Virus record (IMG/VR): IMGVR_UViG_2522572023_000003
Direction: 5' to 3' (one strand)
Source: a virus
Lineage: Duplodnaviria; Heunggongvirae; Uroviricota; Caudoviricetes
Length of the DNA: 42,486 nt
Below are positions 15,001 through 21,000 of this stretch, in pieces; the first letter of the stretch is position 1, and each line of letters begins with the position of its first letter. The position numbers were made by a program.

Positions 15001-18000
15001 CGAAGAAAAGCATGGTTCCCAGGTTGATTTAATTTTTCGTTTTCTTGATCACGCCTTTGCAACCGGCGTGCTCGGGTAAAAGAGGTTACTGATGCGTATA
15101 GAGTTTGTTTTGCCTTACCCGCCGACGGTGAACACCTACTGGCGACGTCGTGGCAGCACATATTTTGTATCAAAAGTCGGTGAGCGTTATCGCCGGGCTG
15201 TGGCGCTTATTGTTCGCCAGCAGCGGCTGAAATTAAGCCTGTCCGGAAGGCTGGCGATAAAGGTGATTGCAGAGCCACCGGATAAGCGTCGTCGCGACCT
15301 GGACAATATCCTGAAAGCACCGCTGGATGCGCTGACGCATGCGGGAATGTTAATGGACGATGAGCAGTTTGATGAAATCAATATCGTTCGTGGTCAGCCA
15401 GTATCTGGTGGACGTCTGGGGGTGAAGATTTACCCCATAATGCTTGAAGGGCTGGTCAAAAAATGAAACTGGAAGATTTACCGAAATACTACTCCCCAAA
15501 ATCCCCCGGCCTGACTGATGCATCGGCCTCAACGTCGAAAGATACGCTGAGTATCACTGATGTGATGGCCGCGCAGGGCATGACACAGAATTGGGCTGAG
15601 ATGGGGTTTTCTGCGTTCCTTGGGAAAATGGGCATTAGTATGAATGACAGAGAGCGGGCAACAGAATTGCTGACAGAATATGCACTCAGTCGGTGTGATC
15701 GCGTGGCGGCGTTAAGAAAACTCCCGGCAGAAATAAAACCGGCAGTGATGCGTATTATGGCTTCGTATGCGTTTGAAGATTATGCCCGTAGCGCGGCGAG
15801 CAAAAAACAGTGCCCCTGTTGTCACGGAAAAAAATTTATTGAAAGCGAGGTTTTTACAAACAAGATCCAGTATCCGGATGGTAAGCCGCCAGTGTGGGCA
15901 AAGTGCACAAAAGGCGTGTATCCGTCTTACTGGGAGGAATGGAAAAAAGTCAGGGAGGTGGTAAAAGTTGCCTGTCCGGAGTGTGGAGGGAAGGGGGAGG
16001 TTTCCACCGCCTGTAAAGATTGTCGTGGGCGCGGTGTTGCCATTCATCGTGAAGAGTCGGTAAAACGTGGTATGCCTGTTATCAGAGACTGCCAGCGTTG
16101 TGGTGGTCGTGGCTATGAAAGATTACCTTCAACGGAGGCATTTAATGCCATATGTAATGTAACCGATGCCATATCTCTTGATACATGGAAAAAAACAGTT
16201 AAACGTTTTTACGATACGCTGGTGGTGCAGTTTGATATTGAAGAAGCATGGGCAGAACAACAACTGAAAAAGGTGACCAGATAGCTTTGTTGATTTTTCC
16301 CGAATCTGTGGTAAATTTGCCCTAACGATGGGCGTTTTATGCCTGACGTTAGAAGATTTTTTACACCCGTCGCCAGGCGGGTTTTTTTATGACTGAAATC
16401 ACGCCAGTACAGTAAACGCGCTGGTGGTTGTGAATACCGGTCTTTCAGCTTGCTGGCTTTTTCGACAAGAGTTATTGGTGTGTCACGTTAACCGGAAAAA
16501 GGAAAGTTTGAGAAACGCGATCTGGCACAGGCGGTTATTAATGCTGCCTACCTGGTGGCCTGTGCAGATGGTGAATGTGAGGCTTCCTAGAAAGCGAAGA
16601 TCGAACAGGTACTGCGTAATCAGCCTGCGCTGTCCGCGTTTACGTCAGAAATTAATGCGATTAGCGCAACCATTATCGGTCAGCTGGATACGAACTTTAA
16701 AATTGGTCGTCGTGCGGCGTTACGTGAGATCGAGGATGTGAAACACGATACGCGTGAAGCGGAAGATGTGCTGGATGTGGCGGTGGCCATTGCGGAGGCA
16801 GACGGCGAAATTGAGCCGGAAGAGCGCAAGGTGCTGGAAGAGATTGCCGGTGTTCTGGGTCTTCGTCTGGAGAATCACCAGTGACGGTAAAACTGCGCCT
16901 GGCTGTGGCTGCACTCCTGCTGTTTCTGGTGGTGATGGTGGATTTCACCAGCAGAATCATGTCGGTGCTGGCGGATGGGGTGCTGGTCTGCGGCATTGTG
17001 GTATTGCTGTGGCCGGTGATAAAAAGAAACAGCCTGCATAATGCTTGATTTTTTTGTTTACTGTTTATTAAAAATACTACTGCATGGTGAATCCCCCTGT
17101 GCGGAGGGGCAATCAGCAACCAGGTATATGTGATAATCGCGGATTCAGGTGCTGATACTGAATTCACCGGGAGGCACCCGGCACCATGCAAGAAAAAGAA
17201 TGTGCATGCAAACATGCCCCTCTCCGGAGGGGCTTTTTTATGGGTAAAAAATGCCCGAATGGGTTCGGGCAATAGCATGAGATACTGATATTGTTGTGTT
17301 GTTATCGTGTGGATTTTAACCAGGGTTTATCAGGCTGCGCAACTGCGTGGCCTTTTTTCATTTCTTGGGCTGTAGTCCCCGTGTGTCATTCAGGCTTCCG
17401 GACTACAGCCCACTCCATATCTGATTTAATACACTATCCCGGCCGGGAGGAATAATGACATTTAAACATTATGATGTTGTCAGGGCGGCGTCGCCGTCAG
17501 ACCTTGCGGAAAAGCTGACACACAAACTGAAAGAGGGCTGGCAGCCGTTTGGTAGTCCGGTGGCCATAACCCCTTATACCCTGATGCAGGCGATTACAGC
17601 AGAAGGTGATGTGGTGGTCAGTGGTGCAACTGAGCCGGATTGGTACTACGTCATCGTACTGGCCGGGCAGTCCAATGCCATGGCTTACGGTGAAGGGCTT
17701 CCGCTGCCGGATTCATACGATGCTCCGGATCCGCGCATTAAACAGCTGGCGCGCCGCAGTACAGTGACGCCGGGTGGGGCTGCCTGCAGATATAACGATA
17801 TTATTCCGGCCGACCACTGCCTGCATGATGTGCAGGATATGAGTACGCTGAATCATCCGAAGGCAGACCTGAGCAAAGGGCAGTACGGCTGTGTCGGCCA
17901 GGGCTTACATATTGCCAAAAAACTGCTCCCGTATATCCCGAATAACGCGGGGATCCTGCTGGTACCATGCTGTCGTGGTGGTTCGGCATTTACCCAGGGC

Positions 18001-21000
18001 GCGGAGGGGACATTCAGTGCGGACACGGGGGCCAGCCAGGATTCGGCGCGCTGGGGTGTGGGTAAACCGTTATATCAGGACCTGATTGCGCGCACCAAAG
18101 CTGCATTACAGAAGAACCCGAAAAATGTGTTGCTGGCGGTGTGCTGGATGCAGGGAGAGTTTGACATGAGCGCCGCCACCCACGCACAGCAACCTGCGCT
18201 GTTTACAGCCATGCTGACACAGTTTCGTGCTGACCTCTCCGTGTTTAACGCGCAGTGCCATGGTGGCAGTGCTGCAGATGTGCCGTGGATTTGTGGTGAC
18301 ACGACGTATTACTGGAAAAATACATACGCTACCCAGTACGACACCGTGTACGGCGGGTATAAAAACAGGGAGAGTGAGGGCGTTTATTTTGTGCCCTTCA
18401 TGACAGACGGTAACGGCGTCAATACCGCCACTAACGCGCCGGCAGAAGATCCGGATATTCCGGCATCAGGATATTACGGTGCGGCATCGAGAACGAATGG
18501 AAACCAGGTATCATCAAACCGCCCGACACATTTCAGTTCATGGGCGCGCAGGAGCATTATTCCGGATCGTCTGGCAACCGCTATTCTGAACGCAGCCGGG
18601 CGCACCTCAGCCTTCATCAGTGGTAAGGCACCGGAAATCAAACCCTCGCCCGGCGGCAACACGCCATCGGGTCCGTCTGCAGATACGTCCGTTCGCACAA
18701 TCTCCCTGCTGCCGGCAGCCGGAGAGGCTGCTGCGCAGGGCTGGAGCATTAAGGATGGCGGAATTCAGTTGTCAGATGGTGTATTTAAGATCACCAAGCA
18801 GAGCAATAAAACCTGGTCCCTGACGCATCCGGTGGATGACGCAATTACCCTGCTGACACAGGGCGGCAGACTGACCTGTAAGTTCCGCCTGTCAGGCGCA
18901 CTGACCAACAATCAGTTCGGGCTGGGGATTTATCTGTATACGGATGCTCCCGTTCCTGATGGTGTGGCGATGACGGGTACCGGTAATCCGTTCCTGATGT
19001 CGTACTTCACTCAGACCACTGACGGCAGAGTGAATCTGATGCATCACAGGAAAGCCGGAAACACGAAGCTGGGGGAGTTCGGCGATTACGGTAACGACTG
19101 GCAGACGCTGGAGCTGGTGTTCACCGCCGGCAGTGCCACGGTTACTCCGAAACTGAATGGAGTGGCTGGCCCGGCATTCCAGGTTATAAAAGACAGTCTG
19201 ACACTGGGACTGAATGCGCTGACGCTGACGGATGTTACAAAAAATGCAGCGTATGGCGTTGAGATAGAAAGTCTGGTGCTGGAGATAAATGCACCGGCAG
19301 CATAATAAAAAAAGAGCCAGCGACTGACCTGAAAAAGAAGACGCTGGCTAAAAGGCCTTATATGTTTGTAGAGACTTATTTTTCACAGACAGCAATGATG
19401 CCTGTCAATATATTATCAATATGCGGATTGTTTCAGTTACAGATGCTTTATTAAGGAAAAAAACAGCCAGCACTGACTTTCGGTGGAGAGGTGCTGGCTC
19501 AGAAGGATAGTTGGATTTCACATGATACTTATGCCTGGCGGTATATTTTCTGACAGACAGTGACGGGTGTTGTCAAGATATTGTGTCATTTATAACCTGA
19601 ATCAGGGGGGGGCCGGAATGTTATCTGGCATTTTTAGCAGAGCCTGAATGCCATAATCACGGCTCCCGGAGTTGGCCGTCAGTGGGTGACACTGGCGGCT
19701 TTTTGTTTTCCTTTACTTTCATTTTCTGTCGGCGGTGACGGAGACATACATCAGATGGAAAAAATCACAACAGGTGTGTCATACACCACGTCAGCGGTGG
19801 GGACGGGATACTGGTTACTGCAGCTGCTGGACAAAGTCTCTCCGTCCCAGTGGGTGGCAATAGGTGTGCTGGGAAGTCTGCTGTTTGGCCTGCTGACGTA
19901 TCTGACTAACCTTTATTTCAAGATTAAAGAAGATAAGCGTAAGGTGGCGCGGGGAGAGTAGTCGATGAATAAACAATACGAACTGGTTGTAAAATGAATA
20001 TTTCTAACTGAAAAAACGTTCCATGAGGTAAGAAAAGGTCACAGGCAATCAATAACAGGACGTGATGAAAGACCCTTGCATTTGTGCGCTTTCTCTTTAG
20101 ATAGCAGCAGATACTGAAAATCTGAGTTGTCGGGGAGTCAGGGATACAGCTGTGCAAGAGTTGGTCATTGTGATTCCATTGAAATCCTGTATGCCATGAA
20201 GGGCAGGATTTTATGGCTACCTGAGCTTTGGTGATAGTAAGTTGAAAATTCGCATTTTTTGCTGACATGCGTAACGAGAATCCCATAAACAGGGAGGACT
20301 TAATTCTTCATTAACCCATGCGTTGATATTATGTTTCAGCCGTTGAAGCATCAGCGGTGTTAATGTTGTGGTAATAATATCCAGCGTTTTATGTGAGATC
20401 TTACCGTAAGGGTCTGCAAGAATGCTGCTTGTTGCTTCGTTATTATCTGCCATCAGAAGAAGTAACTCTGATTTAACGTTTTCTGTCATTAGTTGTAAAA
20501 ATCTTCTGCGCAAACTTTCTTTACTGTTCATTTATATGGCTTCATTTGTTGTAATCTGCTGCGTCTCAAGGGATATGTTTATGAGAGCGACCATGAGTGT
20601 TTGATTATATACCTAACATATCAAGGGATTAGAAATCGATAAATCCCCATGAACGAAAAAATAAAATACGGCCTGTCGGCTGCCGTTCTGGCGCTGATTG
20701 GTGCAGGTGCTTCTGCGCCTGAAATCCTCGACCAGTTTCTGGATGAAAAGGAAGGTAACCACACCACGGCATACCGTGATGGTGCGGGGATCTGGACCAT
20801 CTGCCGTGGTGCCATTCTGGTGGATGGTAAGCCTGTTATTCCTGGCATGAAGCTGTCAAAGGAAAAATGCGACCGGGTTAATGCCATCGAACGTGACAAG
20901 GCGCTGGCATGGGTGGAGAAAAACATCAAAGTGCCGCTGACCGAACCCCAGAAAGCGGGGATCGCGTCATTCTGTCCGTATAACATTGGCCCCGGTAAGT

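Follow-up and report, generated by a model that had tools for sequence, protein, structure and literature searches.

In the Shiga toxin (Stx)-converting phage system 933W/Sp5, the moron region of the late operon comprises the antiterminator gene Q, the late promoter PR', tRNA genes, stx2AB, the small RNA (sRNA) gene STnc100 (EcOnc27), AsxR, the esterase gene nanS-p and the lysis gene S, in that order. Here, the corresponding interval was analysed in a DNA of 42,486 nucleotides from a tailed virus of the class Caudoviricetes (IMG/VR record IMGVR_UViG_2522572023_000003; the whole stretch is called the window below). A prediction made from the sequence had placed a decayed TerB-like gene and a NanS-p-like esterase, and no toxin genes, between Q and the holin gene. 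Very probably, the interval is the moron slot in the late operon of a lambdoid prophage, defective and stx-negative, of enterohaemorrhagic Escherichia coli (EHEC) O145:H28, assembled as a mosaic of known modules.

Several of these modules have been described elsewhere. Pairs of sRNA genes in convergent orientation, located at the moron site 3' of PR', were reported in 2014 (Tree et al., PMC4104026). One such sRNA, AgvB, pairs with the R1 seed of GcvB through the motif CACAACA, relieves the repression of dppA and promotes growth in the mucus of the bovine rectum (PMC4104026); its expression, its binding to Hfq and its relief of repression by GcvB were shown solely for the copies of O157:H7 Sakai (PMC4104026). 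The NanS-p alleles of EDL933 and O104:H4 are active on Neu5,9Ac2 and mucin glycans, and nanS-p of EDL933 ranks with the most strongly induced genes of the late region (PMC8065619); the homologue of phi24B also decorates the capsid, to which it is attached via DUF1737 (bioRxiv 10.64898/2026.04.10.717836). In PP2 of enteropathogenic E. coli (EPEC) E2348/69, a late region consisting of a DUF3927 gene, PasD2, a 616-amino-acid (aa) esterase gene, PasA and the holin gene is found; PasA was mapped there at 743499-743415 on the minus strand (PMC8550237 Table S6), and a PasA target site identified by RIL-seq is listed in the 3' end of EPEC esterase genes (PMC8550237). The usual neighbours of PasA and PasC are TerB, RusA and sialic-acid esterase genes, and the flanks often hold STnc100, AgvB and AsxR (Zhu et al. 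2026). Intact modules of tciA, a TerB-family gene, and tciB are present in Evi, JLK-2012, PPyecE_EH1910 and a prophage of E. coli O145 RM12275-C1.

Composition of the slot between Q and the holin gene

Between the two borders of the slot, Q is followed by PR', tR' and the leader, a dead tciA derived by deletion, tciB, the STnc100/AgvB pair, nanS-p, a PasA-family sRNA gene, and the holin and lysis genes (Table 1). Comparison with 933W bore out the assignment of this interval to the slot in which that phage holds its tRNA genes, stx2AB and nanS-p; furthermore, the position of tciAB relative to the backbone of STnc100, anti-sRNA and nanS-p is the one that stxAB occupies in 933W and BP-4795. No toxin gene was found in the slot when it was searched by tblastn with Stx1A/B and Stx2A/B (best E = 0.49), in agreement with the original prediction, and the prophage does not carry the stxA and stxB genes that make a phage Stx-converting. 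The predicted lack of tRNA genes held for the whole window, in which neither ARAGORN nor Rfam found any.

When 18 kb of it (window positions 12000-30000) were compared, the window matched E. coli O145:H28 RM13516 and RM12761 at 100% identity. Its counterpart on the RM13516 chromosome is 1389304-1431789, with 16285-19960 identical. The prophage of O26:H11 11368 was also considered as the source of the window and was rejected; positions 16285-17455 are 100% identical there, but the comparison of the whole window shares just 13729-19944, at 97.8% identity. RefSeq annotates the TerB pseudogene (internal stop), the tciB open reading frame (ORF) and the esterase of the slot alike.

The interval upstream of the esterase had been said to hold only the TerB-like remnant, a small membrane ORF and two terminator hairpins. 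That inventory was incomplete, as it omitted three sRNA genes: STnc100, AgvB and the PasA-family gene. The two hairpins do exist, yet they are not bare terminators; they are the 3' ends of the convergent STnc100 and AgvB. Across 15300-20000, 13 terminator-like hairpins were found, against 5.0 +/- 2.2 in shuffled sequences. The description of the cargo as decaying applies to tciA, which is dead, but to no other part of the slot, where tciB, the sRNA genes and nanS-p are intact. Likewise, the prophage is stx-free as proposed, but it is related to Stx phages only at the level of modules of the late region, with NanS-p 53% identical and the STnc100 core about 73% identical to their counterparts.

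Other ORFs of the slot were treated as non-coding. In Pfam, with E allowed up to 0.1, nothing matched the ORFs of 193 aa (minus strand, 16697-17278), 105 aa (16424-16741) and 52 aa (17130-17288); the first of these also had no hit among PHROGs. The match of a 54-aa ORF (17291-17455) to DUF3054 (E 0.049) fell below the cut-off and was at noise level. An NCBIfam scan gave nothing useful.

Table 1. Features of the slot and of the prophage around it, in window coordinates (aa, amino acids; nt, nucleotides).
Feature	Position	Strand	Remarks
Integrase	1-1119		internal stop, pseudogene
Q antiterminator gene (left slot border)	15463-16284	+	273 aa; Pfam Antiterm PF03589, E 4.7e-50
Candidate late promoter PR'	16290-16317	+	-35 TTGATT (16290-16295), 16 nt, extended -10 TGgTAAATT (16309-16317); inferred from sequence
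Leader, two hairpins	16322-16389	+	fold -25.6 kcal/mol, z = -4.6
Candidate tR' terminator (second leader hairpin)	16365-16382 plus seven T, to 16389	+	listed by terminator scan
Late leader, remainder	16390-16505	+	92-95% identical in sampled genomes that have it without tciA
Deletion junction, leader fused to tciA codon 18	16503-16505		between imperfect A-rich repeats CGGAAA..AAAAAG
tciA pseudogene	16504-16884	+	residues 18-143; no start codon; E45 to TAG; Y37C; L143Q
tciB / DUF3927	16881-17048	+	intact 55-aa ORF, two hydrophobic segments; GTG start overlaps tciA stop (GTGA)
STnc100-family sRNA gene	17056-17245	+	Rfam RF02076, 147.8 bits (gathering score 47), model positions 1-206
STnc100 terminator	17216-17233 plus T-run	+	terminator scan
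AgvB anti-GcvB sponge sRNA gene	17246-17307	-	Rfam RF02702, 96.5 bits (gathering score 56); all bases match consensus
AgvB terminator	17252-17271	-	terminator scan; fold
Terminator-like hairpin	17332-17359	+	fold -14.9 kcal/mol, z = -3.9; conserved in 933W and BP-4795
nanS-p-type sialate O-acetylesterase gene	17455-19305	+	intact, 616 aa; DUF1737, SASA, DUF6645 jelly-roll
PasA-family sRNA gene	~19457-19541	-	convergent with nanS-p, between esterase and holin; homology to mapped PasA
Class II holin gene (right slot border)	19755-19961	+	PF04971, E 4.5e-32; annotation
Tail region	~31940-31954		head-closure genes joined to partial tail-tip gene; most tail genes deleted
Effector cargo nleL, espN, gogB remnant	within 35402-42274		beyond tail-fibre genes; nleL and espN are type III effectors

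The tciA pseudogene and its deletion junction

The TerB-like frame, which runs from 16504 to a TGA at 16882-16884, matched the Pfam profile TerB (PF05099) with E 1.7e-11 and 44.8 bits against a cut-off of 24.4. PHROG 632 'tellurite resistance' covered the remnant over positions 18-142 of 143 (E 1.2e-58), and residues 18-142 are 98.4% identical to the intact TciA of phage Evi. Both of the lesions proposed earlier were seen. A TAA at 16489-16491 precedes the opening of the frame, in which no ATG lies upstream of the homology; a TAG at 16588-16590 takes the place of the Glu45 codon, which is GAG in intact alleles. The remnant does not form the complete translatable ORF of about 143 aa expected of TerB/TciA, and it is classed as a pseudogene, not as a member gene. 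The PGAP annotation of RM13516 agrees with this ('tellurite resistance TerB family protein, internal stop', pseudogene, 16522-16884), and PGAP also calls a TerB pseudogene with an internal stop in O26:H11 11368, O157:H7 7.1_Anguil and O121:H19 FWSEC0006.

The lesions of tciA are not sequencing errors, because 186 complete E. coli records have the 1171 bp of 16285-17455 at an identity of 99% or more; the TAG and the missing start codon thus belong to the true sequence. That both would be artefacts of assembly or sequencing, and tciA really intact, is barely credible when the best matches listed among those records are 100% identical assemblies of O26, O103 and O145, and when the same junction and TAG recur at 97-98.6% flanking identity in O157:H7 and O121:H19.

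Homology to the leader stops at 16505 and homology to tciA begins at 16503, with the junction reading ACCGGAAAAAGGAAAGTTTGAG. Relative to the arrangement in RM12275-C1, for which the parental sequences were read, 1550 bp have been lost between CGGAAAAGGGAAAAAG and CGGAAATTAAAAAG, and with them a 65-aa ORF, a helix-turn-helix (HTH) gene, three tRNA genes (ileZ-argN-argO) and tciA codons 1-17; relative to PPyecE_EH1910, the deletion amounts to 2578 bp. One 1550-bp deletion of the RM12275-C1 arrangement therefore explains the missing start codon as well as the missing tRNA genes. A single deletion between two imperfect A-rich repeats evidently joined the leader to codon 18 of tciA, and the change of GAG to TAG, made after or before that deletion, closed the frame. 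From the intact allele of RM12275-C1 the remnant differs at 21 nucleotides, 18 of them synonymous and the rest accounting for Y37C, the stop at E45 and L143Q, which indicates that most of the divergence of tciA predates its inactivation.

The same junction and TAG were found in O157:H7 7.1_Anguil, with another esterase from 17189 on, and in O121:H19 FWSEC0006, with another Q and homology from 16361. To count the alleles among 5426 complete E. coli genomes, one query spanning the junction and one spanning the intact 5' end were used; the junction allele was present in 501 genomes (query covered to at least 80%) and the intact 5' end in 790. The dead tciA allele is an old and common mobile passenger that has moved between prophages with different Q genes and esterases, and is not a strain-specific lesion. 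Moreover, the two states coexist in the genome of RM12275-C1, which holds the intact slot in one prophage plus the dead allele. An intact second tciA in RM13516 was sought only in the region positionally analogous to the intact-tciA site of RM12275-C1, which is core genome and holds no prophage. The idea that this cargo distinguishes stx-free relatives of Stx phages did not stand, as tciAB is a common module that also lies behind tRNA genes in JLK-2012, Evi and O145 RM12275-C1.

The small membrane ORF said to overlap the remnant is present and intact, and encodes a DUF3927 protein. It matched PF13064 at positions 2-50 of 53 (E 4.3e-17) and PHROG 1470 'TciB-like' at 1-54 of 54, and corresponds to WP_000216636.1, which is identical to the copy after the intact tciA in O145 RM12275-C1. 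Translation of tciB may still occur from a GGAG of its own, which lies 8 nt ahead of the GTG. DUF3927 genes are also found without any TerB gene, in E2348/69 and O104:H4. A literature search for tciA and tciB returned mostly papers on genotypes of Trypanosoma cruzi, and the only relevant ones were papers on P1-like phage-plasmids.

A function retained by the TerB remnant would also explain its spread, whether through a 48-aa C-terminal ORF from a GTG at 16738 or as a translated or structured leader for tciB. The junction allele is carried by 501 genomes on different prophage backbones, the 48-residue family PHROG 3920 matches exactly the C-terminal piece of the remnant, and the deletion set the ribosome-binding region of the lost 65-aa ORF before it. 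Nevertheless, we consider such a function very unlikely. No ATG, GTG or TTG in the frame from the upstream TAA to the TAG would open more than 11 codons; the GTG at 16738 is preceded by just GAGG, 2 nt upstream; and PHROG 3920 probably reflects the annotation of this same pseudogene by gene callers. Hitch-hiking with tciB, AgvB and nanS-p is the simpler account of the spread, and the DUF3927 genes of E2348/69 and O104:H4 do without a TerB gene ahead of them.

Small RNA genes and the NanS-p-type esterase

STnc100 and AgvB are convergent and abut tail to tail (17245/17246). The STnc100 transcript is predicted to extend over about 17082-17241, from a putative promoter with a -35 of TTGATT (17045-17050) and a -10 of TAAAAA (17069-17074) and a probable 5' end near 17082; this end was derived by alignment with PasD2 of E2348/69, a structurally related RNA whose 5' end has been mapped (PMC8550237 Table S6). 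Position 17082 is the first base of the closing helix GCAUGGUG/CACCAUGC in the predicted fold of STnc100 (z = -3.5). In AgvB, the motif CACAACA that targets GcvB R1 starts at base 10 of the 62-nt RNA, and the 3' terminator folds. The complement of the hairpin at 17332-17359 carries what is likely the -35 of the AgvB promoter.

Cargo followed by STnc100 is a recurring order. STnc100 comes after stx2B in 933W (then AsxR), after stx1B in BP-4795 (then a borderline AgvB-like RNA) and after tciB in PPyecE_EH1910 (then AgvB), and JLK-2012 likewise has it after tciB; tciB, stx2B and stx1B each end 8-80 nt before it. At its core (17063-17190), STnc100 forms a homology island: matches to 933W, BP-4795, TW14359, O104:H4 and JLK-2012 begin at 17063-17080, and those to JLK-2012, Evi, O104:H4 and O157 Anguil run no further than 17189-17191. 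Among phage records, 322 have this core, most of them Stx-converting, and 24 of 25 records sampled across the ranking have no feature annotated under it.

From the recurrent breakpoints at both ends of the core in six pairwise comparisons, one could propose that the STnc100 core and the leader/tRNA region serve as a recombination anchor that marks off an exchangeable cassette, so that one slot would take stxAB and tciAB as alternative alleles, with the sRNA gene as a 'linker' through which toxin and non-toxin cargo swap between prophages; this proposal is tentative, and we give it a low probability. Lower still is the probability that this particular slot once held stxAB and that these genes were replaced by, or lost to, tciAB through recombination with the leader/tRNA region as its left-hand anchor and the core as its right-hand one. 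The common spacing of tciB, stx2B and stx1B ahead of STnc100, the breakpoints and the prevalence of the core in Stx-converting phages would all be compatible with such an exchange, and repeated loss or rearrangement of stx around the esterase-PasA module has been discussed (Zhu et al. 2026). However, tblastn detected no stx remnant of any kind in the slot, the identities of the core to Stx2 phages and of NanS-p imply that any exchange with an Stx phage was old or indirect, and the intact tRNA-tciA-tciB arrangements without stx are sufficient ancestors.

The esterase gene had been predicted to be intact and of the NanS-p type, and this was confirmed. Pfam matched DUF1737 at residues 3-50, SASA at 66-262 and DUF6645 at 467-577, which is the three-domain architecture of NanS-p; the protein also matched the NanS structure 3PT5 (E 1.4e-121) and the C-terminal domain of NanS-p, 6YP6 (E 9e-30), and is 53% identical to NanS-p of 933W. 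Its position between the moron slot and the holin gene of a lambdoid prophage is likewise that of a nanS-p gene, and its length equals that of the homologues in E2348/69 PP2 and O26. In the alignment with NanS 3PT5, Ser73 (within GQSN) and His359 are matched by their counterparts, which would be the catalytic pair Ser19/His301 reported for NanS by Rangarajan et al. (2011). As a separate observation, the 5' untranslated region of nanS-p contains a perfect 13-nt inverted repeat (17366-17378 / 17400-17412), and 17384-17401 could possibly pair with the Shine-Dalgarno sequence and start codon (17443-17460) and so gate the translation of nanS-p.

The spacer between the esterase and the holin gene is 98% identical to that of E2348/69 PP2. 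Compared with PasA, about 45 nt at the 3' end of the PasA-like RNA, comprising the seed GCCAGCACCU and the terminator, are identical, and the 5' part of about 40 nt has about 11 differences; the RNA had no match in Rfam 15. The PasA target motif from RIL-seq, CUGGUGCUGGA, is present at 19273-19283 with identical flanks (19263-19293), in the last 45 nt of the esterase ORF. Set against the neighbours described for PasA and PasC, the whole neighbourhood follows a described pattern (Zhu et al. 2026). Further downstream, 19600-19712 on the plus strand is strongly structured (z = -3.8), with an 11-bp terminator hairpin at its end, immediately before the start of the holin gene. The stretch is also conserved in PP2 of E2348/69 and may represent a further small transcript or an attenuator of the late operon.

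Late transcription, the host prophage and known systems

The Q product matches PHROG 127 'anti-termination protein Q-like' and is annotated as 'antitermination protein' (WP_000762928.1). The candidate PR' directly follows the Q stop codon and is conserved in TW14359, O104:H4 and Evi; the stem of the candidate tR' is kept, with differing loops, in four relatives (TW14359, O104:H4, PPyecE_EH1910 and Evi). Elsewhere, in O157:H7 TW14359, O104:H4 and PPyecE_EH1910, the leader ends 5 nt before the 65-aa ORF, which is followed by a DNA methylase gene. A match of the leader to Rfam suhB/mmgR (E 0.86) was weak and was dismissed as chance.

These components suggest how the slot would work. In the lysogen, the sRNAs would be made from their own promoters, as the literature on their families suggests; AgvB would sequester the R1 seed of GcvB and thereby relieve the repression of targets such as dppA, and the PasA-like RNA would act on Hfq-dependent targets, possibly including the 3' end of the nanS-p mRNA. 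Upon induction, Q-modified RNA polymerase starting from PR' would pass tR', the STnc100 terminator and the hairpin at 17332-17353, and this read-through would lead to transcription of tciB, nanS-p and the lysis genes. The esterase would then strip 9-O-acetyl groups from mucin sialic acids. The dead tciA would contribute no product.

Several points weigh against this account. The proposed PR' was not listed by a simple promoter scan, and PR', the sRNA promoters and the read-through by Q are deduced from the sequence and from homologues. Since the prophage is defective, induction and expression of Q may no longer occur. The duplex between the PasA-like RNA and the 3' end of nanS-p was not specific, with 12 of 500 shuffles as good and other segments of the mRNA better. 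A PADLOC search with TciA, TciB and the esterase gave no match to a defence system except one at noise level (E 0.0035).

The prophage as a whole is lambdoid and nearly complete, and according to the RM13516 annotation it is defective, with an integrase pseudogene, an insertion sequence (IS) and a tail deletion. The insertion, an IS3-family element at 4847-6060 with an ALIL frameshift pseudoknot (5128-5244), splits a Rha/ash-type early gene. The immunity region (6299-6773, minus strand) holds a known sRNA cluster of C4 antisense RNA (6299-6386), isrK (6411-6487) and DicF (6722-6773), near which dicB lies at 4172-4360. A hok/sok type I toxin-antitoxin locus occupies 12851-13174, with sok RNA at 12851-13021 and hokD at 13019-13174. 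On the lysis side, holin and lysozyme genes are separated by a gap of about 690 bp (19961-20649), an unusual spacing for a lysis cassette, in which an antisense ORF of 90 aa lies at 20217-20489; an overlapping 104-aa ORF (20217-20531) had no Pfam match.

Altogether, every component of the slot is of a known kind, and the locus is ordinary and already explained. Little is added to what has been described, as the pseudogene is flagged in RefSeq and NanS-p esterases, AgvB, STnc100 and PasA are known. There is a lesson for annotation, namely that a 'terminator hairpin' between the ORFs of this slot usually marks the end of an sRNA gene that acts on the host, and that most phage records leave such genes unannotated. 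The locus is also an example of selective retention in a decaying prophage: sRNAs that benefit the lysogen and the esterase remain intact, and a dead accessory gene hitch-hikes with them through hundreds of genomes.

Among known systems, the esterase shares SASA, the jelly-roll and the N-terminal DUF1737 with NanS (YjhS) and the phage NanS-p proteins (933W Z1466; phi24B gp84, vb_24B_21). The prophage differs from phi24B in its head genes, and most tail genes are missing from it. Similar to 933W, it has the same slot, with STnc100 on the plus strand, a convergent minus-strand anti-sRNA of fifty-odd to sixty-odd nucleotides, nanS-p and the holin gene downstream of the cargo; dissimilar from 933W, it holds no stxAB and no tRNA genes, its cargo is the dead tciA and tciB, and AgvB stands in place of AsxR. 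The two also differ in the type of Q (273 aa, PF03589 in the window), in the length of NanS-p (616 versus 645 aa, with a shorter linker) and in STnc100, whose cores are about 73% identical. To E2348/69 PP2, nucleotide identity is 95.8% over 17444-19760 (the esterase, the PasA region and the stretch before the holin gene), and both have DUF3927 upstream of an sRNA of the PasD/STnc100 type. PP2 differs in having PasD2, with another 3' half and seed, at the place of STnc100, in lacking AgvB and the TerB remnant, and in its Q.

The names tciA and tciB are taken from tciABC of phage P1, whose TciA is 51% identical; the window has no tciC. To the intact tciA-tciB modules of Evi, JLK-2012, PPyecE_EH1910 and O145 RM12275-C1, nucleotide identity is 91-98% from tciA codon 18 on, and PPyecE_EH1910 and RM12275-C1 have the same STnc100, AgvB and 616-aa esterase after tciAB. 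Unlike these modules, the window has lost codons 1-17, the 65-aa ORF, the regulator or methylase gene and the tRNA genes, and has TAG at Glu45. The closest intact relative is the prophage of O145 RM12275-C1 (chromosome 1789797-1796942), which is 98.3% identical over 16503-19960 and in which the leader is followed by the 65-aa ORF, the HTH gene, the ileZ-argN-argO tRNA genes, an intact tciA, tciB encoding the identical protein, and the 616-aa esterase.

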